In this document: piece after piece, positions 1-64,000 of the stretch
How the letters are laid out: the number at the start of each line of letters is the position of its first letter
Numbering within the stretch: position 1 is the first letter of the stretch
From: an uncultured virus (IMG/VR IMGVR_UViG_3300046479_000175)
Taxonomy: Duplodnaviria; Heunggongvirae; Uroviricota; Caudoviricetes
Virus record (IMG/VR): IMGVR_UViG_3300046479_000175
Length of the DNA: 64,000 nt
Reading direction: 5' to 3' (one strand)
The notes under the pieces: model-generated
What the model was told of the DNA's origin: nothing
What the model saw: the letters and a program-made list of their open reading frames with translations, nothing else
The model's database searches: none
Position numbers and translations under genes: made by a program

Positions 1-836
1 CGCGCGCCTCCTGTCTGCAAGAGCTCGCCCAGGCAGCACGACACCATCAGGCGGCATAACTTGCCGTTAACTTCCACAAGGTCCATGGGAAGACAAATGG
101 CGATGGTCATCATCCGCTCAGTGAGCCAGATGAATCGGAAATCCGAACCACTCAGGCTTTCTGCAATCGCAGGGTCTCTTAAAAACTGCGTCTCCGCCTT
201 GATCGTTTCAAGCACGTCCGAAAAACCGTGACTTCCGGTTTCGATCTCACGCAGATAGCCTCGGAAAATCGGAGATGAGTCGTCCTTTTGCTTCGTGATA
301 CGCTCGCAGAATTCCGGAAACTCCGCCTCGATGACCCGTGCGACTTCGGCGAGGTTCCGCTCATCACGTTCCCCAAATTTCGCAAGGGCGATTTGCATCA
401 CCGTGAACACCCTACGGGCATCGTTCACGAAGAATGCATCGCGTCCGACCGCTTCGCACCCCACACATGCATCCGAGTTCCGACGCGCTATCGCTTCACG
501 ACGAAGAGCTGGAGTTCGGCCATCGAAGAGAGGCAACATCGGGTTGTACCTAGCGAAAGCCTTGACGCCCCACGGAACGTCTCCAGCCATCCCATACGGC
601 GAATACGCATAGTAGGGGCCGAGTCGGGCCAAATATTCCCCGAGGATCGATGTAATCTCGTTGTTTTTGCTGTCTATAAAGAATTTGCTTGCGTCAGTTT
701 GCAAGAGCCCGTTCGGAATTAACAGGCTCGATGTCTTCGACGACCCTGTGGACCCGAAAAACATTCCGTGGCCGCCACTCGAGTAGACGAGCTCCATGGC
801 GCTCTCAAGTGAAAAACCAAGGCTGAATCGCGTCAT
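1..836 (-). CDS. VirD4/TraG-family type IV coupling protein, cytoplasmic ATPase part (runs off the window start)
   Basis: Hand translation, absent from the ORF track: MTRFSLG...HGMFFGSTGSSKTSSLLIPNGL..ASKFFIDSKNNEIT...YNPML...TQFLRDPAIAESLSGSDFRF...TIAICLP...CRLMVSCCL. Walker A-like region and downstream blocks resemble T4CPs. GGAGG RBS upstream. Confidence 0.8.
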   Translation of the reverse strand, partial: MTRFSLGFSLESAMELVYSSGGHGMFFGSTGSSKTSSLLIPNGLLQTDASKFFIDSKNNEITSILGEYLARLGPYYAYSPYGMAGDVPWGVKAFARYNPMLPLFDGRTPALRREAIARRNSDACVGCEAVGRDAFFVNDARRVFTVMQIALAKFGERDERNLAEVARVIEAEFPEFCERITKQKDDSSPIFRGYLREIETGSHGFSDVLETIKAETQFLRDPAIAESLSGSDFRFIWLTERMMTIAICLPMDLVEVNGKLCRLMVSCCLGELLQTGGA

Positions 837-1006
837 CGCAGCAACCCTCCCTTCTTGCACTCCTCATCACTCGCCCAACCGTTCCCCCGGCCGTAGATCG
901 GCTCGCCATGGTATTTCTGCATTTCTTCGAGACGCTTTTTGCGATTAGTTTCCGCACGGGCTAGCGCGCCGATGATCAAGAACACTACGAGCACCAGAGC
1001 TCCCAT
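833..1006 (-). CDS. 57-aa membrane peptide resembling the VirD4 N-terminal anchor
   Basis: MGALVLVVFLIIGALARA...IYGRGNGWASDEECKKGGLLR; one TM segment followed by a motif like the HGSARWA..E...AGLL of VirD4; ATGA overlap with the ATPase ORF. Confidence 0.6.
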   Translation of the reverse strand: MGALVLVVFLIIGALARAETNRKKRLEEMQKYHGEPIYGRGNGWASDEECKKGGLLR

Positions 1007-1012
1007 AAATTC

Positions 1013-1336
1013 CTATGACCTGTCCTTTCTCTCGCGGATATAACCCTCGTCCACGAGGAACTGCCGGTCGCCCGGATCCAAATTGATGCGCTTCAGAAGA
1101 TCCAGCACTCCAATGTTTTGCTGAAGAACGATTCGAAGGCGTTCCCGGTTTTTCCTTCCCCGGAACCCCTCCACACGCAGAGCCTGCGCGGCGCGCTCCG
1201 CATCCTGCGCCATCGCCGTCGCTGCATCCGCGATCCGACGAAGCAACGACGATATGTCGTTCTTTTTCGGACCTCTCTTTCTTTCAGCCTTTACGTCTGT
1301 CGCGTTTTCAATTTCCATTGCTTCCTCCCTCAGCAC
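1013..1336 (-). CDS. hypothetical protein in the coupling-protein operon
   Basis: Co-oriented, closely spaced ORF with plausible helical composition. Confidence 0.5.
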   Translation of the reverse strand: MLREEAMEIENATDVKAERKRGPKKNDISSLLRRIADAATAMAQDAERAAQALRVEGFRGRKNRERLRIVLQQNIGVLDLLKRINLDPGDRQFLVDEGYIRERKDRS

Positions 1337-1351
1337 AACGGGCTGCCGAAC

Positions 1352-1624
1352 TTACCTCGCCGCGTTTCTTTTGTCATCAGGTAACAGCTGGATTCTTCCT
1401 CTCTCTAGAAAAGCGCCCATGTCCAACGGCGCCGTATCGAGGCCCCCAATCGCTTGCTCCAACATCGGCCAGCGTCTGAGCCGCTCCCGTAACTCGAGCC
1501 CCTTCTCGGCTAGTTTTTTTTCCATTCGATCAACCTCCTGCTCCCCGATCTTCGAGGCTCTATCGAGCGCGAATGCGATATCATCGAGCTGAACGACAAT
1601 CCAGAGTTCTGGCGGCGTGGTCAT
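1352..1624 (-). CDS. hypothetical protein
   Basis: ATG with strong RBS (AGGAGAGG); first gene of the minus-strand run. Confidence 0.55.
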   Translation of the reverse strand: MTTPPELWIVVQLDDIAFALDRASKIGEQEVDRMEKKLAEKGLELRERLRRWPMLEQAIGGLDTAPLDMGAFLERGRIQLLPDDKRNAAR

Positions 1625-1768
1625 CCATCCACCTCTCCTTGGTGAATGTGGAGGATTATGCTGGTTTCTAAGTCATTGTGGGCGTAAGACTTGATGCCCA
1701 CTCTTCAGTGGAGAGGCGAAATCCATTCGGGCGCTCGCTGAAATCTTTTCAGCGGATTTTCAGTTAAC

Positions 1769-2908: not shown

Positions 2909-3712
2909 CTATTTTAGAGTTACTGTAATTGATACGTAGTTGTTATAGTTCTTCCTCAGGTGTGTTTCCTGAGTTTCGAACACTGAGTTCCTACGTTCTT
3001 TACCATAAGACACCCGGCGCATTAAGCGTCTGTTGATACCATCGGCCGCTAAGAGGTTTTCCACAAGGCCTGCGCCATCGTCCGCCAAGGCAAGCGCCAT
3101 TTCAGATGAAACGCCCTCATCGACGTTGGAATAAATGATAACTTCCTGCACGGAGTCACCGAGACTGGCGATCCAGTCAGCATTCGTCTGTACTGCCCGC
3201 TTAACATCATTAGTTACCACATAGTCAGGACTCGACGTTTCACTACGCTTATCATATGAGCTTCCAAAATAGATCGTGACGGGTCCATGGACGGTCTTGT
3301 TGCTATTGGGTTGGACAGTAGTGGTTGCTTTTGCGGGGAGAGGTTGAGTAATCACTATTGCAGGTGTGAAGAAAAATGTGAGAATGAAAAAACCAACAGC
3401 ACCAGTCGCCCGCACAGCCACTCCCTTCCCGCTCCAATTGACATGCAGCGCTCCTGGTATCGTCGCTCCCAATACCGCCGTGGCAAATGCGAGCAGGATT
3501 CTGACAAGTATTACGAGATTTGGATCAGAGAACGGTTGGTTCCTGACTACAAGGAAACCAATTAAACCGACTATTGTGACCGCTGCTGTCGCGGAGACAA
3601 TTCGCTCCCAAAGCCGGGGGTGGTAGTCGGCAACGGTCAAGGAAGGTTCTGGTTCTTGTGGCCTGTTCGCCTTCATTCGTGAGCAACATCTTAACATCTG
3701 AATCATGGGCAA
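2909..3712 (-). CDS. membrane protein (about 3 TM) with a C-terminal OmpA/Pal-like domain
   Basis: Hydrophobic N-terminal helices; TIYF...NADW...VDEGVSSEMALALA...LLAADGINRRLMRRVSYGKER resembles Pal/OmpA_C. Confidence 0.7.
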   Translation of the reverse strand: MPMIQMLRCCSRMKANRPQEPEPSLTVADYHPRLWERIVSATAAVTIVGLIGFLVVRNQPFSDPNLVILVRILLAFATAVLGATIPGALHVNWSGKGVAVRATGAVGFFILTFFFTPAIVITQPLPAKATTTVQPNSNKTVHGPVTIYFGSSYDKRSETSSPDYVVTNDVKRAVQTNADWIASLGDSVQEVIIYSNVDEGVSSEMALALADDGAGLVENLLAADGINRRLMRRVSYGKERRNSVFETQETHLRKNYNNYVSITVTLK

Positions 3713-3744
3713 ATTGAGAGCGATTAGTAAAGCGACTTGGACCG

Positions 3745-4638
3745 CTACCGGAGTACATTGAAGTCCGGGTCGGGTCCTGGCGTGAACACCATTCGCTTGT
3801 AGCCGTCTTTCAGCATCCCGCGGTGATAAGCGATAAAGCGTGATAGAACCTGCTCTTTAGTATCCACGAATACTTCGTCCGTTTGTTTGTCCCCTTCGAA
3901 CGTCTCGAAGCTGTAGCGTGGCCCTTTTTCAAGGTCCCAAAGCCGCACGACAGCGGTGATCCACTTTCCTTGCTTGTCGTACCGGGCATAGGAAAGTCCA
4001 TTCGGCCGCTGTACCTGCTGGTCATTATCTAGGACCCACATTGTGTGCAGGGGAAAGTCGGCGGAGGCTGATACTACTTTGGTAAAGTCGGGGCGTTTGC
4101 CCAGAGCTGGCGGCCGAAACGGTTCTCCGTAGATCGTTCTAATTAGCTGTTCGTATTCGCTCTCCTTATAGGGTTCGCCAGACAGGTCAACACCAACTCT
4201 GCCCTTTAAGTAAATTGGAGTCGAGTCTTGGAACGAGCCGTTCCTTAACACAGGAATAAATTTATCAATAGTGAAGCTGTCTGCAAGTTCGGCAGAAATG
4301 GCACCGGACTCGTAGCCGACGCCCCCTAACCGATTATCCGCTCGGTATTTATAGTTCGGTGTGGCGACTACGATTACGAAATCACTCGTCGAGACGGCTT
4401 GCTCCATAAAATGGAGCCTTTCTTGGCCGGGATGCAGATGCCAACGATCAAGGATGACTTGTATTCCGCTTTCGCCTTGAAGCCTGGTTGCAAAGTCGAG
4501 TATCCATGCCTTGTGTGCATCATCATCCCAAGAGTACGAAACAAAAACGCGGGGCACATCGGGAATGCGTTCGGGCAATTTTATCGGTGGTCGTAAGACG
4601 TCGTCAGACGAAGGAGGCATGCGGTCATCCTTAAGCAC
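3745..4638 (-). CDS. TIR/SEFIR domain protein
   Basis: PRVFVSYSWDDDAHKAW...VILDRWHL.PG...FMEQAV..SDFVIVV.TPNY...GGVGYE (putative catalytic Glu)...KFIPVLR. Confidence 0.9.
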   Translation of the reverse strand: MLKDDRMPPSSDDVLRPPIKLPERIPDVPRVFVSYSWDDDAHKAWILDFATRLQGESGIQVILDRWHLHPGQERLHFMEQAVSTSDFVIVVATPNYKYRADNRLGGVGYESGAISAELADSFTIDKFIPVLRNGSFQDSTPIYLKGRVGVDLSGEPYKESEYEQLIRTIYGEPFRPPALGKRPDFTKVVSASADFPLHTMWVLDNDQQVQRPNGLSYARYDKQGKWITAVVRLWDLEKGPRYSFETFEGDKQTDEVFVDTKEQVLSRFIAYHRGMLKDGYKRMVFTPGPDPDFNVLR

Positions 4639-5086
4639 GGCGGCAAATGGATGCAGTTCTGTCGCTTGCTAGAAATTATAGTTGCATCTGAACCGCATCA
4701 ATCGGAATGATCGGCTCTGGCCCTATCAACGCAGCGGCGCAATTCTATGAAATCGACCGTCCTGATCAGATCGCCGATTTCCGTGACTTGCTCAACAACG
4801 GCCTTCGTACCCACTTCGCGCCAGCGGTCTGCGGCTCCCCAAAAGCTCTGATATGTTTCCGGCTCCATGCCTGGTACAGTGACGCGATAAAATTCGGTCA
4901 TATTGGGCGCTCTCCTACGATGGCCCGGACAAGAGGAGCCGGATGTCTGTCCAATTAACGACCCGCGCGGATTCAAAATATATGGACGGCCGGTGTAAGA
5001 GTTTATCATTCAAAGGAACTGTTTGAGTATCGGCTCAGATTTCACGACTTCGCACTGGGGGAATTGTAGTCGAATCGCCTCCCGGC

Positions 5087-5204: not shown

Positions 5205-5696
5205 ATGAAGGCAGCTTTGTCACACCGCACAGCCGTACAGCTCTTCAGCCGATGGAGAAGGGCTAAAGAGATAACCATCTGTCGCGCCGCCGCCCTGTTT
5301 TGCGTGAGCGGTTCTCAGGTGGCCAAATGGGAGTGGTACGAAGATCCCATACCCGCATACGTGTTCGTCGCAATTGAAACAATTCAGAACGTCAACATCA
5401 ATGTTGGGCGCATTCATTATGTCTACAAACTGACGGACGCGAAGACGGGCCAGTTCTATTACGGGGCTCGCTCATGCTATGGAAGAGCCGCAGATGATGC
5501 GTACTCAGGAAGCGGCGCATGGAAGGAGCGCACCCCCGATCTGGGCATATCCCTGATCAAGGAAATACTGAGCTTTCATCCGAGCCATAATGCAGCGGTA
5601 CTGACGGAGAACGGCCTTCTTAGGAAACATCGGAATCACCCGCTTTGCGTCAATCGACAAGCGGGGGGAGCCCGCAAAAGGTCAGTCGTATGCTGA
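5205..5696 (+). CDS. HTH fused to a GIY-YIG (Seg-like) endonuclease
   Basis: N-terminal AAALFCVSGSQVAKWE; HYVYKLTD..TGQFYYGARS...DAYSGSG. Confidence 0.75.
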   Translation: MKAALSHRTAVQLFSRWRRAKEITICRAAALFCVSGSQVAKWEWYEDPIPAYVFVAIETIQNVNINVGRIHYVYKLTDAKTGQFYYGARSCYGRAADDAYSGSGAWKERTPDLGISLIKEILSFHPSHNAAVLTENGLLRKHRNHPLCVNRQAGGARKRSVVC

Positions 5697-5881
5697 CACC
5701 TCACCAAATCCATAGCCTCCGCACACGCCTCAAGCTGACTGCCGATCTGTTCGCCGAGAGCCTTGGCCTTATTGGTAAATATCGAGCGCTTACTGTTTAT
5801 AAATGGGAATCTGGCTCCAAGAAGCCGGGGCCACAAACCGTCCTCCTGATGAAGTCTTTGGCTCGCAATCCCCACAAATAA
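5690..5881 (+). CDS. XRE-family HTH regulator
   Basis: MLTPHQIHSLRTRLKLTADLFAESLGL...TVYKWESGSKKP. Confidence 0.85.
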   Translation: MLTPHQIHSLRTRLKLTADLFAESLGLIGKYRALTVYKWESGSKKPGPQTVLLMKSLARNPHK

Positions 5882-5906
5882 GCAACTTTATTTCGTCGAT
5901 TCTCTA

Positions 5907-5935
5907 TTGACCCCTATATGGCTTTGGGCCATAGT
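5907..5935 (+). promoter_or_regulatory. sigma70-like promoter with palindromic operator
   Basis: TTGACC-N17-CATAGT; palindrome TATGGC-N5-GCCATA at 5917-5933. Confidence 0.6.
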
Positions 5936-5959
5936 ACGCCATCAACTCTGGAGAACCCA

Positions 5960-6244
5960 ATGCCCGTCGAATTCATACTGGACCCCGCAATTCAAGCCAT
6001 CATCGAGAGACGGATGGCGTTCAACTGGCCAGCCTTCGCCGTCGGAGCCTACGTGGGAATCCGTTATAAGCAAAACGCTCATGGCCGTATCACCGCGATC
6101 TGCGCCAAGGGCAACACGGACCGCCACGCATCAACCAACGCATTCGGCGTTCTCAAAATCAGGATGGACGACGGCACCTTCCGCTACGAGCATCCAGAAC
6201 ATCTCTTCACGGCAACTCCCCAGCAACTCAAGCTTGTCGGCTGA
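5960..6244 (+). CDS. phage-type hypothetical protein
   Basis: GGAG RBS then ATG; first gene of a tightly packed operon. Confidence 0.6.
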   Translation: MPVEFILDPAIQAIIERRMAFNWPAFAVGAYVGIRYKQNAHGRITAICAKGNTDRHASTNAFGVLKIRMDDGTFRYEHPEHLFTATPQQLKLVG

Positions 6245-6247
6245 ACC

Positions 6248-6520
6248 ATGAACGCTGTTCTCAAATCCTTCGCCGACATCAGCGGAACCCTTCACAATAT
6301 GACGTCGTACGCCGACGCCCTCACAGCCGCCATCCGCCGCAAGGGCGACCTCGAGATTGATGGGCTCATATTCCGCCGTCGCACCGACATCGAGATCCCC
6401 ACCGATCATTTCTCGACCGGACGCCACACGATGATCTATCAGATGGACGGTACAGGAAAACAGTACCGCGTGATGATCGAACCGGTGCTGGAGACGCATC
6501 AGCCTAGGGAGATTGGGTGA
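6248..6520 (+). CDS. hypothetical protein
   Basis: Packed operon. Confidence 0.55.
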   Translation: MNAVLKSFADISGTLHNMTSYADALTAAIRRKGDLEIDGLIFRRRTDIEIPTDHFSTGRHTMIYQMDGTGKQYRVMIEPVLETHQPREIG

Positions 6521-6807
6521 TGACCAGCGACGTTCCCTTTTATGTGGTGAAGGATGAGCAGACGTTGACAGGTCTGCCGCAATTCCTGCACGGGCTCGGC
6601 TTTCAATACACAGCCCATGAAGATGAGTTCGACAAAGGCGGCAATCCGATATTCCGCCTCTACTACGATAAATACCCGAATAAGGATCATGTATGGGGCG
6701 TGGAGAAGCGCGGTATTGTCGTTGTGCGTCGCAAGGAATGGGTCCAACAGGTTAAGGATGCTATTCAAGCCGAGATCAAGAGATACGAAGCGGAGTACGC
6801 AGCATGA
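6517..6807 (+). CDS. hypothetical protein
   Basis: Stop/start overlap. Confidence 0.6.
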   Translation: MMTSDVPFYVVKDEQTLTGLPQFLHGLGFQYTAHEDEFDKGGNPIFRLYYDKYPNKDHVWGVEKRGIVVVRRKEWVQQVKDAIQAEIKRYEAEYAA

Positions 6808-7013
6808 GCACCACTGCCAACAAATCGCCGCCATTAGGTCGGATAGGACAGCTCGCCGAAAATCTACGGTGTGCAGCAAGGAATGTCGCCAACGAAATGG
6901 TGGAAACGCCGGGTGGTGACGCCTATGAGTATCGCGGCGGAACGAACGCTGTCGACACCCTGATCGAAGCACTCAATGATCTTGAGCACTTTCAAGCAGG
7001 GTGGCGTGAATGA
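6804..7013 (+). CDS. hypothetical protein
   Basis: ATGA overlap. Confidence 0.5.
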   Translation: MSTTANKSPPLGRIGQLAENLRCAARNVANEMVETPGGDAYEYRGGTNAVDTLIEALNDLEHFQAGWRE

Positions 7014-7591
7014 CAGGCGCGCTCGACAAAGCCCTCGACGCCGTGGCGAAGCTCGCGCCGCAGGACAATGAGCCGCCGCGAGCGCCAGAACAGAAAATCA
7101 TTATCAAGACGAAAGGCGAAAGAGAATGTGATGAATGCGCCGAGCCCGCCACACGTCGGTGCACATTCTTGATGCCACATTATCGGTCGAATCCTGCATC
7201 GAGCGGATATGGAAAAGACGATTGCAGTTATTGCTCGGATGCGGAAGTATTCGTTTGCGACACCTGCAAGCCTGAAACTCCGTCTGGAATGTGCTCGGAA
7301 TATTCGACCTTCTACAAGAAGAGGTTTCCACATCTATTTGTTGTCTGGAGAGAAAAGGAAGCCCCCGATCTGTTGCGCGAGAGGGATAGATTATTGACGC
7401 AGTTTTGCAGGGCCGAAATTGATATATCTGCGCTCCAAGCCGACAACGCGAGGCTGCGGGAAGAATTGCGGCGCATATCTGCCCTCGATCACACAGCAAA
7501 CATTGGCAAGCCCCATGATCCGACGTATTTTATTCGGACGGCTCAAGGCATAGCCCGTGCCGCCCTTGCGCCTACGGTGACGAAAGAATGA
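7010..7591 (+). CDS. Cys-rich (putative Zn-binding) phage protein
   Basis: CDEC, CSYC and CDTC motifs; ATGA overlap. Confidence 0.6.
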   Translation: MTGALDKALDAVAKLAPQDNEPPRAPEQKIIIKTKGERECDECAEPATRRCTFLMPHYRSNPASSGYGKDDCSYCSDAEVFVCDTCKPETPSGMCSEYSTFYKKRFPHLFVVWREKEAPDLLRERDRLLTQFCRAEIDISALQADNARLREELRRISALDHTANIGKPHDPTYFIRTAQGIARAALAPTVTKE

Positions 7592-7767
7592 AAAACACCG
7601 CAAACAATGAGGCCACGGATCTCGCCCAAGCCCTCGAAAGCAGATTTGGCCATGAGATTGACGACGATCAACCCATCAACGGTGCAGAGGCTGTTGACGC
7701 GATATGTGAACTTGCGCCAATGTGGCGCTCGATCTTGAAGAAAGGACCGCAACCGACTCAAGGATGA
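7588..7767 (+). CDS. 59-aa hypothetical protein
   Basis: ATGA overlap; hand translation MKNTANNEATDLAQALESRFG... Confidence 0.45.
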   Translation: MKNTANNEATDLAQALESRFGHEIDDDQPINGAEAVDAICELAPMWRSILKKGPQPTQG

Positions 7768-7998
7768 CATTTCATGCAGCGGCAGTGCGGAAGGACGCAC
7801 CTGTTTAGGGCTACGAGGCCAAGCGGGTTCTACTGTCAGCTCCATCGTAGAGCCGGTGTCAAGTCCGGCCCGCTGCATCAAGTGCCACAACTTTAGGAAA
7901 TGAGACGGCCATGCTTATCCGGTTAGAACCCAAGGATGCTAAACGTTGAACCTCCGCATGTAGGTCACATGCATACGGCAACAGCAAAGGAGAATAAC

Positions 7999-8274
7999 AT
8001 GTCTTACTCATTTGGGGTTCAAGCCCCGACCAAAAAAGAGGCCGAAGAAAAGGTCTCGCACGAATTGGTGAAGGTCATTGAAAGTCAATCAATGCACAAA
8101 AAGGATGCCGATCAAGCTGCGAATGCTGCTTTCAGTATGATTGCGCTCCTGCGCGAGGATGAAACCAAGGACATTTATGTCTCGGTGTCGGGATCGATTG
8201 GATGGGAGGCGGACGAAAGCCTCAACTCTGCTTCCGTCAACGTTCACGCCTACCTCAGTTCGAAGACGGCGTGA
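7999..8274 (+). CDS. hypothetical protein
   Basis: AAGGAG RBS; MSYSFGVQAPTK... Confidence 0.6.
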   Translation: MSYSFGVQAPTKKEAEEKVSHELVKVIESQSMHKKDADQAANAAFSMIALLREDETKDIYVSVSGSIGWEADESLNSASVNVHAYLSSKTA

Positions 8275-8466
8275 GACCAACGGTTCGCCCACGGCTGCTA
8301 CCGACAACGGGCCGTGGGCGATAACCGGATAAGCATGGAGACGACTATGGGTTGGCCTACAGCAGTTGAGCATATTGGTTATGCCTTCGCGGCAGCGGGA
8401 GCATTTTCCGCCTTTGTCATCGCCGTTTTTTCAGCCCTTCGTTAACCCCTCGCAACAGGAAACATC

Positions 8467-13056: not shown

Positions 13057-13063
13057 CTTAATC

Positions 13064-16997: not shown

Positions 16998-16999
16998 AT

Positions 17000-55524: not shown

Positions 55525-55544
55525 GCCGAGATTCTATCGCTATT

Positions 55545-56225: not shown

Positions 56226-56312
56226 CGGTCGTTCGCCGGTGAACCTGAGCTGATGGCGAACAAGCTGTCAAGCTTGAGTTCGTGCCACGCGGTGATGGAG
56301 GCGCCAATCGGA

Positions 56313-56876
56313 TCAACCCCTCGGTGTTGTAAGCTCGCGCGCATACGCAGAAGCCGCTCGAACAGCCTGATGATCCCGATCCGTTCCTCGTCCTTCATTT
56401 AGGGTCTTTTCGATCATGTCTTTGACCGCGAGAGGATGCCGCAAAACTTCCGCGTTGGCAATCCGAATCGTGCGCACACCATGTCGCTCGAGAAGCCACT
56501 TGTCCCTCCCGGCGTCGTATCCCCCCCGGTCGTCGTGACTCGACCCGTCGATCTCGACAGCCAGTTTCTTGGCTGGCAGGAAGAAATCGGCCAAAATATA
56601 GCGGTCTCCGTTCTGGAAAATCTTCTCCCTCACGAACCAGACGTCGAGTGCGCGAAGGATGTCGGAAAACATCAACTCCGCAGCCGTCGGATTCCGCAGC
56701 CGAGACTGCCGATGCATCTCGGCGTGCGCCATGACTTGGTAGTCGGTCCGCTTGCGCCTGTATTGCTTCGTTGGGTCCGCCCCGTGGGCGTGAAATTTGG
56801 CGCGGGCCTTGATTCGCTTCCGGCGGCGCTTGAGGGGCGTTTTCCGCGATATTGGCTTGCGTCTAACCATCCACAT
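56313..56876 (-). CDS. DUF559/Vsr-like endonuclease
   Basis: LRNPTAAE...YILADF....KLAVEIDG.SH.....D..RD.WL..HGVRTIRI.N. Confidence 0.85.
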   Translation of the reverse strand: MWMVRRKPISRKTPLKRRRKRIKARAKFHAHGADPTKQYRRKRTDYQVMAHAEMHRQSRLRNPTAAELMFSDILRALDVWFVREKIFQNGDRYILADFFLPAKKLAVEIDGSSHDDRGGYDAGRDKWLLERHGVRTIRIANAEVLRHPLAVKDMIEKTLNEGRGTDRDHQAVRAASAYARELTTPRG

Positions 56877-56964
56877 TCTTAAAGCGGTTTCACATCAGAA
56901 TCCAGCCCCCAAAAACACGCGCTGAGTCTCTCCACGTAAGTGTTATGCTTTCCATATCTTCCGC

Positions 56965-57639
56965 ATGCCCGAAGCTTCAATTCTTGAACTCATTTCGATT
57001 ATCGTCAGCGCTATTTCGGCGCTGCTAGGGACTGCCTTCGCCTCCGAGACAGCTACCAAACTGCTCGCAAAGTATTTCAAATCGGAAATCAGGTATATAT
57101 CCATCGGCGGCACAAAGTATGCACTTGCGGATGCCGCGTCAGCTCTGGGGGCGAAGCCACCTCCGCCATCGGACGCACCAACCGTTCCAAAGATTGATAC
57201 AGCACGGGACCATCTGATTACCCGATTGAATCAGGCGTCAGAATTAGAACGCAGGGATCGGATTCTATCGAACGTATGCAGATGGTCGTCGCGACTTTTC
57301 ACCTTCAGTCAATACATCGTTGGCGGAGCATTAACGCTTTCGTTCGTCAAACAGCAATTTAGTGCGCAGACTATTGGCGTTTTTGGGGTTGTCGTCTTTG
57401 TCGCCTCCGGATTAAATCAGCATTTCAACCCTAGCGGACGTGCGGAAGTCGCAGAAACGGCCGCGGAGCAATTCGAGGACTTGATTCGCGAAACCGAGGA
57501 CAAACTCCTTGCCATCGACCTCACCAGCGACGGCGTAAATAAAGACCCGAAGCCGATACTTGATTTGATAAAGAAGACGTCGTCGGAGATCGGCCGGATC
57601 AAGGCCATGAGTAAACGCCGGAACCGTACCAAGCACTGA
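56965..57639 (+). CDS. SLATT-like membrane protein
   Basis: Two C-terminal TM segments followed by FNP..RAE....AA..FE.L. Confidence 0.6.
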   Translation: MPEASILELISIIVSAISALLGTAFASETATKLLAKYFKSEIRYISIGGTKYALADAASALGAKPPPPSDAPTVPKIDTARDHLITRLNQASELERRDRILSNVCRWSSRLFTFSQYIVGGALTLSFVKQQFSAQTIGVFGVVVFVASGLNQHFNPSGRAEVAETAAEQFEDLIRETEDKLLAIDLTSDGVNKDPKPILDLIKKTSSEIGRIKAMSKRRNRTKH

Positions 57640-57749
57640 TCATCTTTGGTGCTTCCCGAAAAACCACAGTTCCCCTTCCGTGGCGCCGCCCCGCTAATGA
57701 CAGGACACGGTCAGAGAGACCCAACGATACGGCGTTAGAATGAGTCGTA

Positions 57750-58178
57750 ATGTCCCGCCTGACCAAAGAACGTATCGCCGCGGTAGTCGACGCCCACCAC
57801 CTCGATAAGGAAGAAGCCGATGCCGCAACAAGCGCTGCATCACACATCATCAACATGTTCGTCGAATGGAACATGTCGCCGGAATCTGTTGCTGGCGTCA
57901 TGGAGTTGCTAGCCCATCTGCGTCATGATCGCTGCGCGGCGAAGCCGACGCAGTCAGGTGAGAACAGAGAGCCCTTTGAGATTTTCACCGAAGCCGTAGC
58001 CGAAACGGGCAGAAATGGTTTGACGAAAAGTGAATTGCTTCCCACCTTGCTGGATTTCTCGGCGGCTATAGCAATCGCCCTCGGCGGTGAAGAGGCTTTG
58101 GTTAACTGCATGATCCGCTTTGGGGATCGTATCAAGGACTTCCGGGAGGGGACGTTCCCCGTGGATGACGCTACATAA
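57750..58178 (+). CDS. hypothetical helical protein
   Basis: 142-aa ORF. Confidence 0.55.
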   Translation: MSRLTKERIAAVVDAHHLDKEEADAATSAASHIINMFVEWNMSPESVAGVMELLAHLRHDRCAAKPTQSGENREPFEIFTEAVAETGRNGLTKSELLPTLLDFSAAIAIALGGEEALVNCMIRFGDRIKDFREGTFPVDDAT

Positions 58179-58359
58179 GCCGTGGGACCTTATCCATTTG
58201 TTCGGGCCCATACCGGCCCCCTAATCGGCTGGCCAGTGCTCGTTCCCCTCACTTCTTAGTTAGCCGCGCAGTTTTTTCCACGACATTCATGCCAATGAAG
58301 TCGTAATAGTACTTGACCGGGTTGTCCCTCGAGAGTCCAATTGCCTATCGCGGAGGCTC

Positions 58360-58977
58360 TTGATGGATAACCAAACTAAACACAAATGGGCTGTGGCTGG
58401 GTTGGTCATTTTCCTTGTTTTGCTTGTTGTCGGTGGGATTGTCTATGCATGGATTCCGATCAAGATCGATGCTCCGTCCAATGACCGACTGGTGGTTTTG
58501 ATTTACACCGACGCTTATTGGTTTAAACAACTTTACATGCGATGGACGGTCGTCGATTGGGCGCTGACAGCGTTCGCTGCAGGGACTGCCGTTAGCGCAG
58601 CCATCAAGAATGCCTATTCAGTGAAGCAAGACAAGCAAGATGCGCCATCGAAACTCGACATTACCCTAATGATCTTAGCGGTTCTTGCGGTCCTTGCGAC
58701 CACCTTCGACGCGAAGCTTCACGCAGGACAATTGGCCGAGCAATATCGAAAGGGCGACTTAATTCTTCAGGACGCGAAGATGCACTTCGAGAAAAATCCA
58801 AATGATCCAGCTGCCAAGGATAAACTCCTTGCCGAGTGGCAGAAGGCCGAAGATATTCTCGAATCTCCTCAGCCGATAGGAAAATCTCGGGGTGATGGCC
58901 AAACACCCCCAGTCGCAGATCCGAGCGCTCCAGTGAATGACCAGGCAAAGAAGAAGACGAACACATCGGGAGATTAG
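58360..58977 (+). CDS. SLATT/DUF4231-like membrane protein
   Basis: TM pair followed by FDAKLHAGQLAEQYRKG..IL. Confidence 0.55.
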   Translation: MMDNQTKHKWAVAGLVIFLVLLVVGGIVYAWIPIKIDAPSNDRLVVLIYTDAYWFKQLYMRWTVVDWALTAFAAGTAVSAAIKNAYSVKQDKQDAPSKLDITLMILAVLAVLATTFDAKLHAGQLAEQYRKGDLILQDAKMHFEKNPNDPAAKDKLLAEWQKAEDILESPQPIGKSRGDGQTPPVADPSAPVNDQAKKKTNTSGD

Positions 58978-59004
58978 ATCTAACATACTTCCACTTCCGT
59001 AGCC

Positions 59005-59313
59005 CTAGTCAACCAGCGATGCCACATTCAGCAGTTTGGCGCCCTCGCGGCGCAGTCGGTCGATCCAAACGGCTTCGGAAATGTCCCATTTCGCGTCATT
59101 ATCGATCACCACGATCTTAGGCTGAAGATCCTTGGCATGAAGCGCGAGTAGCCACGCACCCACCGGTGACAGGCGCAACCCTCTATTGCGCCGGTTCCTC
59201 ATATTTTTGAAATGCCATTTCAGCCTTGTCTTTGGGCCACACCGGGTCTGCCCAACGTACCGCGTCTCCCCCGTCTCCGGGCAGATCAAAACATAAACTC
59301 TGGCTCGGCCCAT
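59005..59313 (-). CDS. small GIY-YIG nuclease
   Basis: VYVLICPETGETRYVGQT...RL..H...E..WI......LLN. Confidence 0.8.
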   Translation of the reverse strand: MGRARVYVLICPETGETRYVGQTRCGPKTRLKWHFKNMRNRRNRGLRLSPVGAWLLALHAKDLQPKIVVIDNDAKWDISEAVWIDRLRREGAKLLNVASLVD

Positions 59314-59339
59314 TCGCTTTCCTCATAGCTCCGCCCTTT

Positions 59340-60060
59340 CTACCTGCCGGTCTGACCCCGCAGCCCACGACCAATGGGAGGCAACATGCCCGTATACTCG
59401 TTCCCTTTCAAAACTGTGCAATCCCTTGCACAGCTAACCGGAAGCATTTTTCGGAGCTTCCACGCTCGGTTGTAGGCCGGAGGTCATCCCGGCTGGCACA
59501 CCGAACGCTGCCGTACCGATCCCGGTTTTGCCGGAATACCGTATAGGTCGAGGGTGGAAGTGGCACACCAGAGCCCCTGTTTTGTTCGGCATCTGACGAG
59601 CAGGGATGCCGCAAGCTGCGGGTGACACATCATGTATTGCTTTTTGATGGAGAGGCGGCTATAGATAGTGCCGCATTCTGCCGCAACAGCAATGCACCGG
59701 CTCGGGACTGTCACCAACAGACCGGCCATGGAGGGGAACCCTAGCGGTTCCCCTTTTCATTTTCAAGTGTCTTATGTAATCTCCCTCATCGGACGTCGCT
59801 CCCAATTCCACTCGGTGCTGGTACTTCCGTCCTGCCGGGCCAGCAACGGCCAAGCCGAGCAGGTTAGGGAATGAGGCTGCGTGGTTGAAGCTGAAGGCCT
59901 CCTTTGTGGCGTGGGTGGGGATTGTCGCAACCAATCTCCTTAGTGGGGTGGTCCCGTTCCGCCCCGACAATACGGGACACCGCTCTCCGAAGCGACGCCG
60001 CGATGCGTGCGCCCAGCACGCTGACGCGAGCGGCGGCGCGCTTCACCGCAGGTGCGGTTT
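59340..60060 (-). ncRNA. candidate large structured ncRNA or origin
   Basis: No convincing ORF; more than 10 hairpins, with a GNRA loop and G-U pairs that favour the minus strand. Confidence 0.45.
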
Positions 60061-60177
60061 CGGGACCGCGCGCGAATGCGCGCCCACCGGCACGGCTGAA
60101 TTGCTATCGAAAAGGCCTATAATGCCGCTCATCATCTCCCGGGCCATGCGGCTCCATCTAAGATAGGAGGGGCGAAA

Positions 60178-61728
60178 ATGTCCGCTCCCGTTATTAAGTT
60201 ACGTCGGTTGATTCAAGAAAACAGCAGGATCCAGAAGGGTTCGTCGATTGAGATCGATTACGTTGATGTCACTCATGCTTTAGCAGATGCCACCACCCGC
60301 CAAAACCACGTCGTTTTCGGGCGCCGCGGATGTGGAAAGAGTTTGCTCCTGGAAAAGGTTCGAAAGGGGATCGGCCCGAACATCAAGGCTATCTATATAA
60401 ACTGCGAGGACTACAAGCATCATTCGTTTCCAAACGTTCTTATCGAGATCCTCGATGCTGTTTTCACGGAAATCGAGGAACATCTCAGCGGGTGGTTCGG
60501 CAAGAAGAAGCGCCTGCGCGCTCTCGTCGCCGAGCTGAGAGGATCGCTCGACAAACTTCGAACCAAGGATGACGAAATTGAGAAGAAGGTGAAGAGCCGC
60601 GCTGAAATCGAAAAGAAGGGGTCTGCTAGCGCAAAAGCAGCGGTTCCTCACACGCATCTCGGCTTCGAGTTCTCTGGCGCGCGCAAAGAATCTATTGAGG
60701 CGGAATATCACACGTTCGATGACAAAATCCGTGATCTCAACCAACTGCTGCCGAAATTGAAGAGGACGATTCAGCAGTTTTTTGACTTATCAAACAAGGT
60801 TGAGGTCATCTTCATCGAACTGGATGATTTCTACCAGCTGAGAAGGCCCATCCAGCCTTATGTTGCCGATTACGTTCATCGACTGTGCAAAGACCTTCCT
60901 CTGTTCTTCAAGATCGGAACGTTGCGTCACGTAAGCTCACTTTATGCTGACCGCCATCAGCAACCCATTGGCGCACAAGAGCGTCATGACTATCAACCAA
61001 TAAACGTCGACTACACTCTCGCTGATTTCAAGAAAACATCGGCCCAGATTCGCAAAATACTGCATGAGTACGCGAAAAAAGCAGGGATGACGCCGGATGA
61101 AGCAGACTCACTGTTCAAGGGAGAGGGCTTCAACCGCCTCGTGCTCGCATCCGGTGGCGTACCGCGCGATTTTCTTTCCCTCCTCCTTGAGGCCCTAGCC
61201 GACAAGCCGCCGGGCGATGAAAAGATCGGGAAGGATGATGTAAGGGGGCTCAGTCTTCGAACCTTTCATCACCGCATCGAAGAATTGAAGGCAGACTCAG
61301 AGGAGAAAGATCACGACACGCTCATACGCGGAATCTATGCAATCCGTAAGCTCTGCCTCGACCGCAAGACAAACGTCTTCCTGGTCGCCGACAAGAATCT
61401 CCAAGAAATGAGCGGAATTAAGGACCTCCTAAATCGGCTGGTCGACTATCGAATCGTTCACCTCGTCGGAGCAGCATTGACCCACAAATCTCAGCCGGGG
61501 ACCTTTACCGCTTACATGATCGATATGGGTGCCCATGCAAATATGCGCAAATTGGCCGGCAAATTTAAGGAAATCGACATCACAGCCCCAGATGCGAAAG
61601 AGCAGTGCCGGAATGCTCCAGTTCTGGAAGTGGCGACGCTGGAAGCGATGTTCGCTTCCGCTCCTATTAACGCCGAAGAGGTCCTCATAAAAGAGGTGGA
61701 GAGTGAGGAGGAGGAGGATTCGAACTAG
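60178..61728 (+). CDS. P-loop ATPase (ORC/CDC6-STAND-like), probable defence moron
   Basis: VFGRRGCGKS Walker A, IFIELDDFY Walker B, ASGGVPRDFL. Confidence 0.8.
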   Translation: MSAPVIKLRRLIQENSRIQKGSSIEIDYVDVTHALADATTRQNHVVFGRRGCGKSLLLEKVRKGIGPNIKAIYINCEDYKHHSFPNVLIEILDAVFTEIEEHLSGWFGKKKRLRALVAELRGSLDKLRTKDDEIEKKVKSRAEIEKKGSASAKAAVPHTHLGFEFSGARKESIEAEYHTFDDKIRDLNQLLPKLKRTIQQFFDLSNKVEVIFIELDDFYQLRRPIQPYVADYVHRLCKDLPLFFKIGTLRHVSSLYADRHQQPIGAQERHDYQPINVDYTLADFKKTSAQIRKILHEYAKKAGMTPDEADSLFKGEGFNRLVLASGGVPRDFLSLLLEALADKPPGDEKIGKDDVRGLSLRTFHHRIEELKADSEEKDHDTLIRGIYAIRKLCLDRKTNVFLVADKNLQEMSGIKDLLNRLVDYRIVHLVGAALTHKSQPGTFTAYMIDMGAHANMRKLAGKFKEIDITAPDAKEQCRNAPVLEVATLEAMFASAPINAEEVLIKEVESEEEEDSN

Positions 61729-61860
61729 TTCAGGGAGAACTCCGTGCCCGCGATTAGAGATTTAACTCGCGACATCCTCGGCGAGCTCGACAAGACCATT
61801 CTGGATAGCTTCACAACTGAGGAGCTGCAGATCATCGACGTCTCCGTCCAGCTTTCTTTT

Positions 61861-62193
61861 TTATTCACCCCCAATCCTCGCATGGCGCGAACGGGAAGGC
61901 TTTTTGACCTGATAGCCGTTCAGTCGGCCATATCCCCAATATTGGCGTCTCTCCAGTAACCCAAGACGAACAAGATGCCACAGGATAGGCCTCACCACGA
62001 ATTCATCGAGATCGTCATCAACCTGCTCAACGACGGCCACAACCTCCATCGGCGTCAGCCAAATGAAGTCCGTTATGTGATTTAGAACGATTGAACGTAG
62101 CTTATGTTTACGTGGCCGGCGCCCATAGGGCTTACGTTTTGTCCGACCGGAGATCTTCACTGCCTCGGGAGGCGTCCACCCTCGCTTCATCAT
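61861..62193 (-). CDS. small winged-helix-like protein
   Basis: VRPILWHLVRLGLLERR; overlaps rusA. Confidence 0.5.
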   Translation of the reverse strand: MMKRGWTPPEAVKISGRTKRKPYGRRPRKHKLRSIVLNHITDFIWLTPMEVVAVVEQVDDDLDEFVVRPILWHLVRLGLLERRQYWGYGRLNGYQVKKPSRSRHARIGGE

Positions 62194-62597
62194 TGTTCGA
62201 TCACTGACACCGTCACATACGTCTTTTCCTCCACCTCTGTGTATTGCCGCCGGACGATCAGTTCGTTCACGAACCGATCATCGAGGAACACCGTCCGGTT
62301 CATCCCATCGGTGATCGCCTTCACGCAGTTGTCAACGTCGCAATGCGTTGGCATCAACTCGCCGCGTAGCGCAAGGCCGCGCTTCTTCGAAGACCAAGAT
62401 TGCGGTATCGAGCAGTAGATGCGGATGCTTAGGCTGACGAAGCCGAGCAATGGCGGATTGCCCTTCATCGCGATGTTTGCGACCTGACGAACGAGTTTTT
62501 CGTAGGCGCGCGTTTCAGGGGGCGTTACGAAGCGGTTGCCGAACGTCCGTTGCTTTGGCTGACAGTAGCCGGGTATTTCGAACTCGACCGCCCGCAT
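62190..62597 (-). CDS. rusA: RusA Holliday junction resolvase
   Basis: IPG...PKQR; DVDNCVKAITDGMN..VF.DD. Confidence 0.9.
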   Translation of the reverse strand: MRAVEFEIPGYCQPKQRTFGNRFVTPPETRAYEKLVRQVANIAMKGNPPLLGFVSLSIRIYCSIPQSWSSKKRGLALRGELMPTHCDVDNCVKAITDGMNRTVFLDDRFVNELIVRRQYTEVEEKTYVTVSVIEQ

Positions 62598-62608
62598 TCA
62601 TAGCATCT

Positions 62609-62872
62609 CTAATCCAAGTAGCCCAATAAGAAGCCGGGGAGCGAATAATCAGCTTCCCGCGATGCTATTCGCCGCTCATCAATATCCGCATTCTTCCGCT
62701 TGCGCGCAACTCTGTACGACTTCCATGGAGCGCGCTTCTCTAATCTGAGGCGATGGACCTTCCCAAGAACCGCGCAACGTGATGTCTTCAGCGCGAATGC
62801 GATCTCCTTTGGGCTCTTTCCAGCGGCCCACATCTGTTTCAGTCGTTCAGCGTCTTCGGCGCTCCATTTCAT
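62609..62872 (-). CDS. GcrA-like N-terminal HTH protein
   Basis: W..E..ERLK.MW..G.S..EIA..L..SR.AVLGKVHRL.L. Confidence 0.85.
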   Translation of the reverse strand: MKWSAEDAERLKQMWAAGKSPKEIAFALKTSRCAVLGKVHRLRLEKRAPWKSYRVARKRKNADIDERRIASREADYSLPGFLLGYLD

Positions 62873-63486
62873 GCGGCGCCACCGGCAGCCGCGAATTTAT
62901 CCGTCTGGTTTCCCCATGTGTCCCATCCCGATCTGCGCTGCCGGGCAAAGAGTTCGCAATATGGACCAGCAACAAGCCGCTCAATCCTTTCGTGAATGCC
63001 CTCGGGCTTCCGAGAGTGCTCTCGGCGGGGAGCGATGATGCCTTGGCGAACGTCGGCGTGCAGACGCTTAGGCTTACCCCGCGTCGCAAGCAAAGAGGGC
63101 TCGGTGTTCGCCCGCGTCCAGTAGCCGAGGCCCGCGAAAGGTGTTTTGTCATCCGCGAAGAGTCGATACGGGTCCGCTTTCATCCAGCTAAAGGCGCACG
63201 TTTTGTAGGTAAATCCCCACGCATCCAAAATCGCGAGCGAGCGCTGCAGGACAGGCCAGCAAGTCCACATGAATAGAACGCAGTCCTCTGCCGCCAATTC
63301 CGAAACTGGCAACGCGGCAATTTTGTCGTCGTCCATCAGGTCGTAATGTCGTTCGATAGCCCGCGACGGATAGTTATTTCCAACCTTCTTGGGTCGCGCT
63401 CCCCAAAGAGAGTTAAAGACCCATGGCGGATCCGCAAGGATCGCCCCGTAATGACCGGCCTTCAGATCTTCGAAAGGCCACGTCAT
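62869..63486 (-). CDS. MT-A70 family adenine methyltransferase
   Basis: ILADPPW, LFMW, WGF.YKT..F.W.K, REHSRKP, ELFAR, WGNQ. Confidence 0.93.
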   Translation of the reverse strand: MTWPFEDLKAGHYGAILADPPWVFNSLWGARPKKVGNNYPSRAIERHYDLMDDDKIAALPVSELAAEDCVLFMWTCWPVLQRSLAILDAWGFTYKTCAFSWMKADPYRLFADDKTPFAGLGYWTRANTEPSLLATRGKPKRLHADVRQGIIAPRREHSRKPEGIHERIERLVAGPYCELFARQRRSGWDTWGNQTDKFAAAGGAA

Positions 63487-63848
63487 CAGTTACCCATGAA
63501 TACGTAAACAGGTGTCTTCCGTGCGTGACTCCTCTTTTCCTTCATCGCCCGATAAGCTCCGGTTGCTTTCAAAAGCCCATCGCGGACAGCTTTATTGATC
63601 AGCGCACCCCATGCATTTGCGTGACCTGGATGGCCGACGCGGGCGATAAGCATGCGGCGAAGATCCTCGCCCGTGACGCCGTGCTCCGTATTTGCCCAGC
63701 CATTGGGCATGCGGGCGAGCTGCTCAAGCTGAAGCAATGCGAGTGCCATCCAATCGGAATTATTTTCTGTGACTTGCTCGATGCCGGCGTCCCGAGCCTG
63801 AGCCGATGCGAGGAAGTCGAGGAGCGGAGCGCCGGATTCCATCTTCAA
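63486..63848 (-). CDS. phage hypothetical protein
   Basis: ARDAGI..V..N...P.H.NAWGAL....HAR. Confidence 0.6.
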   Translation of the reverse strand: MKMESGAPLLDFLASAQARDAGIEQVTENNSDWMALALLQLEQLARMPNGWANTEHGVTGEDLRRMLIARVGHPGHANAWGALINKAVRDGLLKATGAYRAMKEKRSHARKTPVYVFMGN

Positions 63849-64000
63849 CCCCCGCCGTAGATATCGGCCAATGTCACGTCGCCCTTGCAGAATTTCACGA
63901 TCCGCTTCGCCATAACAGGGCGCGGAACTCGCAGACCATGCACATATCGGCGCGCGCTCTCATGCGTCGTTTTGATCCCGTCAGCAAAGGCCTGGATCGA
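63845..64000 (-). CDS. Cro-like HTH protein (5' end outside the window)
   Basis: Hand translation ..AFADGIKTTHESARRYVHGLRVPRP.MAKRI....KGDVTLADIY. Confidence 0.75.
   Translation of the reverse strand, partial: SIQAFADGIKTTHESARRYVHGLRVPRPVMAKRIVKFCKGDVTLADIYGGG

Follow-up and report, generated by a model that had tools for sequence, protein, structure and literature searches.

The MOBQ mobilisation systems of plasmids RSF1010 and R1162 combine a relaxase, whose MobA_MobL domain has a conserved Tyr and a His triad, with an origin of transfer (oriT) in which a hairpin is followed by the nic core, and they need a foreign type IV secretion system (T4SS). The relaxase stays on the 5′ end at nic, and the DNA 3′ of nic enters the recipient first. 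Phage-plasmids, such as those of the P1, N15, and SSU5 types, hold virion genes and plasmid-type genes contiguously. Mobilisation genes or an oriT are rare among them according to excerpts of PMC10879196 and PMC10123127, that of the latter breaking off at “only six ...” of 222 E. coli phage-plasmids. Here, we analyse a 64,000-bp stretch of DNA from peat metagenomes, the IMG/VR record IMGVR_UViG_3300046479_000175 of an uncultured virus of the Caudoviricetes; we refer to the whole stretch as the window. All 64 kb consist of mobile-element genes. The left part, 1 to 23.5 kb, is a MOBQ mobilisation unit, and the right part, which runs from 23.7 kb past the window edge at 64 kb, is a myovirus. A preliminary description suggested a single replicon that could spread both as virions and by borrowing a T4SS. 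We propose instead, at a probability of about 60%, that two distinct mobile elements abut at 23.5–23.7 kb, either side by side or with the phage inserted in an integrative and mobilisable element (IME).

Profiles from Pfam, PHROGs, NCBIfam, and PADLOC were scanned against 78 non-overlapping open reading frames (ORFs) of the window and 4 more picked in addition. The relaxase gene, mobA, lies at 22471–23481 on the plus strand and encodes a MobQ-type protein of 336 residues. MobA matches PF03389 at E 1.9e-31 (110.1 bits against a cut-off of 26.7) and the NCBIfam MobQ model NF041496 at E 5e-38, where its 130.7 bits miss the 200-bit cut-off. In an alignment of 22 sequences, residues Y27 and H140 do not vary, and at least 90% of the sequences have H152 and H154; we take these to be the catalytic Tyr and the His triad. 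Plasmid homologs of MobA are annotated mobQ, the best of them, 43.9% identical, being on a 15.9-kb Methylocystis plasmid.

The oriT, which is of the RSF1010 type, lies at 22073–22111 on the minus strand. Its core agrees at 11 of 12 positions with the MOBQ nic-core consensus as printed in an excerpt of PMC3832669. A hairpin with 9-bp arms adjoins the core, preceding it on the minus strand, which is the strand predicted to be nicked. As single-stranded DNA the oriT folds with a z of −3.6, and a second hairpin lies beside it at 22112–22141. For comparison, the 900 bp upstream of MobA were searched in 32 relative loci, two of which had less sequence. The core recurs 75–421 bp upstream of MobA in 22 of the 32, and a perfect stem of at least 6 bp is found 1–3 nt from the core in 18 of 23 sequences (the 22 relatives plus the window), compared with 1.7% in shuffled controls. 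These stems have 15 different arm sequences; that is, the structure has been kept and the sequence changed. The oriT is real, as validated by this comparison, and nicking at it is predicted.

Between oriT and mobA, at 22187–22456 on the plus strand, is a gene for a small helix-turn-helix (HTH)-like protein of 89 residues. The protein has no Pfam match, and homologs with 37–47% identity are encoded immediately upstream of MobA in four relative loci (L049, L050, L055, and L060), suggesting a relaxosome accessory. At the other end of the unit, a type IV coupling protein (T4CP) gene at 3–860 on the minus strand is cut by the left window edge, leaving the N-terminal 286 residues. The VirD4-like coupling protein reported earlier at the window start is borne out by a PF02534 match (E 2.6e-13, 50 bits), in which residues 30–274 align to positions 45–284 of the 468 in the profile, and by a Walker A-like GSTGSSKT; weak homologs stand beside MobA in L049, L062, and L077. 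A winged-helix, Trans_reg_C-like regulator is encoded at 1769–2668 on the plus strand. Its PF00486 match, at E 3.5e-5, is below the cut-off; a homolog that is 27% identical (E 9e-25) lies directly upstream of the HTH and MobA genes in L050, and a Trans_reg_C protein has the equivalent position in L057.

The evidence supports a real mobilisable unit in the left part, made up of MobQ relaxase, oriT, HTH accessory protein, and T4CP, which would have to borrow a T4SS. It shares with the RSF1010 and R1162 systems the relaxase domain with its Tyr and His residues, the order of hairpin and nic core, and the presumed need for a foreign T4SS. It differs from them in that the relaxase has just 336 residues, with no primase fusion and a score below the NCBIfam MobQ cut-off, in having its own T4CP and small HTH protein instead of MobB and MobC, and in its context, which is integrated or large rather than a small plasmid.

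The kinship of the mobilisation module was followed with an alignment-based MobA scan, one genome per species, that gave 98 confirmed relatives, of which 80 were kept as loci; scans of genome contigs and viral contigs with the single MobA protein gave no confirmed relatives. The nearest MobA relatives are in metagenome-assembled genomes of Acidobacteriota, Acidobacteriaceae, and Bryobacteraceae (50%, 46%, and 40% identity). Synteny was assessed by tblastn of the 78 window proteins against the 80 loci and, in the other direction, by searching the window with 8867 ORFs of the loci. The genes in common are those for T4CP, the Trans_reg_C regulator, the small HTH protein, MobA, and methylases only, and 71 of the 80 loci have MobA alone in common with the window. 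The structural and lysis proteins of the window phage were found in none of the 80 loci in either direction of search. Pfam annotation of 157 ORFs across nine of the loci, to which tRNA scans were added, showed no T4SS, terminase, portal, or capsid families.

In five loci, L049, L050, L057, L062, and L077, the T4CP, regulator, HTH, and MobA genes are 0.1–4 kb apart. A tRNA gene and a tyrosine integrase gene stand on the T4CP side in L057, L070, and L077, as follows. The order in L057 is tRNA-Ser, integrase, T4CP (minus strand), regulator (plus), oriT, MobA (plus), methyltransferase, ParA, and RepB-primase. L077 has tRNA-Lys, integrase, T4CP (minus), MobA (plus), and ArdA, and L070 has tRNA-Asn, integrase, and MobA. 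In L049, ArdC, ParA, T4CP, HTH, MobA, and a second relaxase-like gene are followed by pyruvate kinase, PFK, and MDH. The relatives of the module are tRNA-integrated IMEs in Acidobacteriota and other soil bacteria, and, by analogy, an integrase gene and an att site are to be expected just left of the window.

The window resembles the IMEs L049, L050, L057, L070, and L077 in its MobA clade (37–50% identity for the closest, 32% for L077), in the oriT core with its hairpin, and in the partner genes for T4CP, regulator, and small HTH protein. Its T4CP and MobA genes are divergent, as in L057, L062, and L077. The window differs in that its regulator and oriT are separated by 19.4 kb of cargo, as against 0.3–0.5 kb in L050 and L057, and in that MobA is followed directly by the prophage, with no ParA, Rep, or primase gene after it.

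On the right, the phage reads on the minus strand. Its contractile-tail module, at 29651–47839, encodes fibres, a chaperone, baseplate proteins (gpI/J/W/V/D-like), tape measure, tube, sheath, and neck. The head and packaging module, at 47849–54449, contains connectors, endonuclease VII (48219–48869), a P22-coat-like major capsid protein (MCP; 49302–50459), scaffold, portal (51350–52723), the large terminase TerL (52724–54175), and, at the end of the module, a DUF5681 protein that is a candidate small terminase. With the lysis genes described below, the terminase, portal, MCP, sheath, tube, baseplate, and tape-measure genes make good most of the “complete myovirus gene set” of the preliminary description; the exception is that genes for lysogeny and replication are missing from the window, past whose right edge the phage runs. 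The replication, immunity, and integration genes of the phage must lie beyond 64000.

The closest described phage is Ralstonia phage Raharianne (Rahariannevirus; complete, 46.3 kb). It matches 16 window proteins at 25–65% identity, all of them encoded within 25767–48869 and none within 1–23481. Thirteen of the matches are in the tail module, collinear with gp32–gp49, and include the sheath (44119–45909; 57% identity). The other three are a neck protein (47849–48226), the endonuclease VII, and a class-3 lipase (25767–26387), which is homologous to the gp58 esterase/lipase. The window phage is thus like Raharianne and the Komagataeibacter phages phiKX1/2 in its collinear neck, sheath, tube, tape-measure, baseplate, and fibre genes, and like Raharianne in having the endonuclease VII gene before the sheath gene and an esterase/lipase gene that closes the late region. 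It differs in the type of its head and packaging genes (P22-coat-like MCP and DUF4055 portal), in its SleB-type endolysin, and in the presence of Abi morons; the early regions are not comparable. The late genes of Raharianne finish with the lipase homolog, which is followed on the opposite strand by an integrase-like gene and the early-left operon.

The portal is at most 36% identical to those of cultured phages, and the MCP is at most 53% identical to homologs in IMG/VR. To judge from such identities, the phage genome is a mosaic, with a Raharianne-like tail and a head of other kinship. Portal relatives were found in 6 of 401 Acidobacteriota genomes (the best, G060, at 42%, and the next at 40%) and in 9 of 401 Alphaproteobacteria genomes (best, 39%), and the sheath was found in none of the 401 Acidobacteriota genomes. 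Two prophages that were inspected, in G093 and G150, have head genes alone in common with the window. As to mobilisation genes in relatives of the phage, Raharianne has none, and PF03389 was found in none of five IMG/VR records whose head or ParB genes are related; a record with virion genes, MobQ, T4CP, and oriT does exist and is considered below.

The two parts meet in a 222-bp junction (23482–23702) between mobA and the convergent last gene of the minus-strand block on the phage side, a candidate element end. The distance from the MobA stop codon to the endolysin gene is 1486 bp, confirming the earlier placement of MobA and its oriT about 1.5 kb from the endolysin. This interval holds the 222-bp spacer and one gene, for an accessory protein of 412 residues (23703–24941, minus strand), so that the reported lack of an integrase, att-like repeat, or housekeeping gene between MobA and endolysin holds as well. 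The junction itself has no tRNA-like or Rfam match and no repeat, and an ORF that overlaps it (23303–23710) is without a homolog among the retrieved loci, where the best E values are 0.003 to 0.5.

Homologs of the 412-residue protein were found in Acidobacteriota only (Telmatobacter, 50%; Granulicella; Ca. Acidiferrum), which suggests the phylum of the host; the host is probably a member of the Acidobacteriota. The gene is present in 3 of 201 Acidobacteriaceae genomes; in G869 and G936 it sits by itself, with housekeeping genes around it. ESM Atlas gives AbiJ/Abi_C (HEPN)-like leads, weak ones scoring below 0.9. The gene is accessory rather than housekeeping and probably serves in defence; it may be a moron at the prophage end or a gene of a resident islet. 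Together with an AbiV-family gene (28035–29573), it flanks the lysis genes with genes of the Abi type, an arrangement that resembles a defence hot spot.

The proposal of two abutting elements is as follows. Element 1, from the left edge to about 23.5 kb, would be most of an IME, its T4CP gene reading out of the window. MobQ would nick the minus strand at oriT and, with its own T4CP, dock onto a helper T4SS. Since the oriT core is on the minus strand, DNA at coordinates below 22078 would enter first, and the minus strand would serve as template for plus-strand genes. The T-strand would thus arrive with coordinates falling from 22078, bringing in the methylase gene and an 18-gene plus-strand block first and mobA last, and the leading genes, transcribed from the incoming strand, would blunt restriction and other defences. 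The predicted direction of transfer is away from the phage. Element 2, from 23.7 kb to beyond 64 kb, would be a temperate myovirus prophage that is read from right to left in the order early genes, packaging, head, Raharianne-like contractile tail, lysis, and, at the distal end, Abi-type morons. Because the late operon of Raharianne ends with the lipase gene beside the integrase and early-left junction, an integrated relative would be expected to end where the window phage meets mobA. The ends of both elements are outside the window, and what is said of them rests on the relatives.

In favour of two elements, the mobilisation module is found elsewhere as a unit, away from genes of the window phage, and the relatives of the phage lack mobilisation genes. 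Among the 82 ORFs, none matched an integrase, recombinase, or Rep, and none matched a ParA family; iteron-like arrays and intergenic tandem repeats are likewise absent from the window. MobA and the 412-residue protein were each found on a contig of 161857 bp, which is too long for a phage-sized replicon. It is in these respects, and in the Raharianne-like end at the junction and the predicted polarity of oriT, that the single replicon of the preliminary description fares poorly, while its basis, a real mobilisation unit that touches a phage, stands.

The preliminary description had also seen, in the DNA between T4CP and MobA, a phage-style operon with a plasmid-type ParB. There is a ParB-like gene, of a kind that is overwhelmingly plasmid-borne, but a conjugative leading region is the better reading of the block. 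Between 2909 and 21998 there are 25 ORFs, 19 of them on the plus strand. The distal part, at 5205–18129, has 18 co-directional plus-strand ORFs, among them genes for the ParB-like protein, a DUF7768 protein, a Lar-like protein with a weak match, a DUF1643 protein, and a PD-(D/E)XK-like protein. Nearer oriT, and adjoining it on the leading side, are an orphan N6/N4 DNA methyltransferase (20202–21197, plus strand; PF01555, 5e-27; phrog_67, 4.6e-72; PADLOC MTase_II, 1.6e-73) and an HNH endonuclease (21393–21998, minus strand; phrog_374, 4.3e-40). The plus-strand orientation of the 19-kb block would match templating by the T-strand.

The 607-residue ParB-like protein (8467–10290, plus strand) is of the HerB/YfjB type. 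At least 4934 plasmid records, among the best 5000, match it over at least 80% of its length, and the best 5000 plasmid matches comprise 4030 on conjugative, 587 on non-mobilizable, and 383 on mobilizable plasmids. Among 50697 phage records, 2 match at 80% coverage or more, both of them unannotated faecal fragments. On the IncF plasmid NZ_CP147076.1, a homolog (30% identity over 99% of the query) is encoded between ssb and psiB, in the place of yfjB/herB of F, which specifies a ParB-like leading-region protein of 652 residues according to an excerpt of PMC13370423. Leading-region anti-defence, methyltransferase, and toxin-antitoxin genes are described in an excerpt of PMC11541004 as oriented so as to be templated by the T-strand. 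As far as these two excerpts go, the location next to oriT and 3′ of nic, the plus-strand bias, the HerB/YfjB-type ParB, and the orphan methyltransferase all fit a leading region. The weak Lar-like match, the DUF1643 protein, and a toxin-antitoxin-like pair described below add to the content of the block. F-like plasmids share with the window the full-length HerB/YfjB-type homolog, the orphan methyltransferase, and genes that run in one direction beside oriT, on the side that enters first. They differ in being conjugative rather than mobilisable, and SSB, PsiB, ArdA, and ArdC were not detected in the window by the Pfam and PHROGs scans.

A ParABS partition locus was considered for the ParB-like gene and rejected. 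No ParA is present in the window, the scores against partition models are below cut-off (TIGR00180, 55.2 bits against 58.45; PRTRC ParB, 65.5 against 278.6), and the architecture and context fit HerB/YfjB. Directly upstream of the gene, the segment 7895–8350 has a T-strand fold with a z of −5.0, matched by none of 100 shuffles, and a 27-nt inverted repeat brackets an ORF at 7936–8274. By analogy with Frpo of F, the fold could be a single-strand promoter or initiation signal.

Several observations weigh against two separate elements. Nothing in the 222-bp junction marks a boundary, be it an att repeat, a partial tRNA, an integrase gene, or a housekeeping gene, and since both elements run off the window, neither end is seen. 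Sequencing depth is equal on the two sides in four metagenome runs, and tetranucleotide usage is alike (r 0.94 between left and right; 0.89 and 0.93 within the halves), showing no contrast; both fit one element as well as two neighbours. The convergent late and accessory operons also match a circular λ-like phage map. The maintenance genes that follow MobA in L052, L055, and L057 (ParA, RepB-primase, Rep3) are missing. Finally, two IMG/VR records, described next, show circular or phage-linked elements of a related composition. It is possible, at rather less than even chances, that prophage and mobilisation unit are physically linked, either as a mobilisable phage of the G996 kind or as a prophage nested in the IME between mobA and the far end of that element.

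An alignment-based MobA scan of IMG/VR gave five loci. L165 and L166/L169, in which serine recombinases, TrbL, and a P-loop protein of the TraG type are encoded, look ICE-like (resembling integrative and conjugative elements, ICEs). L167 lies in G996 (loci L167 and L171–L173), a circular-looking record of 40229 bp with a 95-bp terminal repeat and a GC content of 61%. Its virion genes are those for P22-like TerS, TerL, portal, scaffold, MCP, adaptor, Hc3, ejection protein, endolysin, and spanin; its plasmid-type genes and sites are SSB, ArdC, a HerB-like ParB (E 3e-100 against that of the window), a serine recombinase, a T4CP, an oriT-like core with hairpin, a MobA_MobL relaxase, and Rep3. On this gene content, G996 is a candidate conjugatively mobilisable phage-plasmid, and a circular element with virion genes, MobQ, T4CP, and oriT thus exists. 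The second record, G002 (loci L174 and L015; 1–34894), is an IMG/VR “provirus” in which capsid (PF19821) and T7-type portal (PF12236) genes are paired with a plus-strand block for a Lar-like protein, a HerB-like ParB (44% identical and the closest in IMG/VR to that of the window), DUF2786/DUF7168, a D12 methylase, and ParA.

One form of such a linkage would be a hybrid element. This would be a temperate myovirus, either integrated or existing as a phage-plasmid, with the MOBQ, T4CP, and oriT unit and the leading region in an accessory zone between its late operon and its early-left or integration region, and it could leave the cell as virions or through a helper T4SS. The lack of any boundary feature between mobA and phage agrees with it, as does the convergent layout, which is that of a vegetative λ-like map, with the mobilisation genes where Raharianne has its integrase-like gene. 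G996 would be a precedent, and G002 joins a HerB-like ParB, a methyltransferase, and ParA with phage capsid and portal genes. The relatives of portal and MCP include phages of 71–80 kb, making a genome of about 80 kb possible, and 161857 bp, as 2 × 80.9 kb, would fit a dimeric assembly, although we regard this as numerology. We nevertheless consider the hybrid unlikely. G996 and the window have in common MobQ, T4CP, oriT core, HerB-like ParB, and a phrog_283 MCP, but at low identity (MobA, 30%; ParB, 36–40%; MCP, 26%), and the one is a podovirus and the other a myovirus. The window MobA is nearer to the copies in IMEs (50%, 46%) than to that of G996, and its module is syntenic with IMEs. Rep and/or a partition system together with virion genes, the mark of a phage-plasmid, is a combination not found within the window, and the length of the contig speaks against a monomeric plasmid of phage size. 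To this is added the rarity in print of mobilisation genes in phage-plasmids, cited at the outset.

A different alternative is that the left part is the edge of a self-transmissible ICE or of a conjugative plasmid or megaplasmid, with the T4SS genes to the left of the window and the prophage in or beside it. T4CP genes often adjoin T4SS operons, and the T4CP gene reads out of the window. That all of the window is mobile-element DNA on a contig of 161857 bp would also suit a large element, as would the predominance of conjugative plasmids among the best 5000 HerB-like matches. No T4SS family was found among the 82 window ORFs, and the DNA left of the T4CP gene is outside the window. In L057 and L077, which have the same divergent T4CP and MobA genes, the T4CP gene is followed by integrase and tRNA with no T4SS, and a MobQ of this size is typical of mobilisable replicons (1997 MobA matches on mobilizable as against 1155 on conjugative plasmids). 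We judge this alternative improbable.

The join at 23.5–24 kb was compared with Logan contigs from four metagenome runs of four studies, at depths of 2–9×. All bins around the junction are covered in the four runs, with depth alike to the left and right, and a contig of 2883 nt spans 20997–23879 with 0 differences, reaching from mobA through the spacer and 177 nt into the gene that follows; the run of this contig may be the source sample. Loose ends of Logan contigs are scattered in the leading region, with none listed at the junction, and two small skips (85 and 99 nt) occur in single contigs of low depth. No excision or circle joints were found among the Logan contigs, which by their nature cannot show absence. 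Two Logan assemblies (X2 and X3) and the IMG/VR fragment G001 break at 23879/23880 or 23939/23940. We considered these breaks as an element end and rejected them as such; the positions are inside the 412-residue gene and fit two strain single-nucleotide polymorphisms 59 nt apart, the likely explanation, and a variant 3′ end of the gene is possible. The notion of an assembly chimera of two unrelated contigs, for which these three breaks and the modest depth might speak, has very little to recommend it in view of the bridging contig, the even coverage, the gene-internal position of the breaks, and the finding of MobA and the 412-residue protein on the 161857-bp contig.

The best reading remains an IME next to a mosaic temperate myovirus, both of known kinds. 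What sets the IME apart is that its leading region is long and includes a HerB-type gene, and that its phylum has been little studied. If there are two elements, the window gives a well-resolved IME of an uncultured soil bacterium, probably of the Acidobacteriota, with an oriT of the RSF1010 type, a T4CP of its own, and a HerB/YfjB-bearing leading region of unusual length, and it carries the recent biology of leading regions beyond enterobacterial plasmids to mobilisable elements that are integrated. If prophage and mobilisation unit are linked, a complete temperate myovirus could be passed through a helper T4SS into cells that the virions cannot infect, and the anti-defence genes of the leading region would serve entry by either route. 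Conjugation would then widen the host range of the phage beyond its receptor, and the divide between phage and plasmid would be blurred. For such biology, G996 may be a cleaner case of a mobilisable phage than the window.

Over the window as a whole, repeats are at chance level, none of them att-like, and the window contains no tRNA or partial tRNA. A terminator and promoter scan gave no excess over shuffles. Megablast of 1–24000 against plasmids and of 29600–54500 against phages found no match. No match was obtained when metagenome contigs were scanned with a T4CP fragment and with a 120-residue protein from the right end, and an exact 46-nt right-end pattern was found 0 times in viral contigs. 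Two IMG/VR fragments are identical to parts of the phage, G001 to 23940–39233 and L001 to about 42110–51430.

At the far end of the leading block, at 2909–5009 on the minus strand, is a cargo of an OmpA/Pal-like protein (Pal_lipo, E 2.3e-9, below cut-off), a bSEFIR/TIR defence protein (TIR_2, 4.5e-18; PADLOC bSEFIR, 2.1e-66), and a small ORF. The genes of the two adjoining proteins (2909–4638) oppose the strand of the leading block. Also on the minus strand, at 18253–19926, are genes for a PIN-like DUF4411 protein (3e-38) and a regulator in which an HTH is fused to a peptidase M78 domain (Peptidase_M78, 9e-10, with HTH_3; phrog_2439, 2e-45). This pair has partial PADLOC matches to RmrA and capP and appears, from its domains, to be toxin-antitoxin-like or defence-like. 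Loose ends of related contigs cluster at 18727–19440 in three metagenome runs, which suggests a shared mosaic cassette.

The lysis region lies at 24967–27877 on the minus strand. The endolysin, of the SleB type and 150 residues long (24967–25419), has no Pfam match at E ≤ 0.01 and weak PHROG endolysin matches; in the ESM Atlas it is assigned to PF07486 (Hydrolase_2) at 0.96, with 30 of 30 matches, mostly in viral clusters. A phmmer search of the PDB found no match for the endolysin, a 422-residue protein, or a 308-residue protein. The start of the endolysin gene is overlapped by a gene for a 75-residue membrane protein (25409–25636), and beyond the lipase the region holds genes for a coiled-coil/transmembrane protein, a protein with no assignment, and a holin-like protein (27524–27877). 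The AbiV-family abortive-infection gene mentioned above is a moron on the plus strand (PF18728, 7e-11; TIGR04498, 36 bits against a cut-off of 27).

The middle and early region of the phage, 54513–64000, is on the minus strand with plus-strand morons, and it continues past the window. The morons, at 56965–61728, include a SLATT-domain protein (56965–57639), a Sll1717-type ATPase of 516 residues with an ORC-Cdc6-like P-loop (60178–61728), and two unknown proteins; genes for a GIY-YIG protein and a DUF559 endonuclease are nearby. After the morons come RusA, a GcrA-like protein, and an MT-A70 methylase. Relatives of the last, with 60–82% identity, are present in 16 IMG/VR loci, the closest of which, L017, also has a TerL that is 60% identical. 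In the tail module, the distal fibre gene (29651–33379), which encodes a protein of 1242 residues, stands out in base composition, with 46–48% GC over 29–32 kb as against 55–60% in the rest of the module, which suggests that the receptor-binding part has been exchanged.

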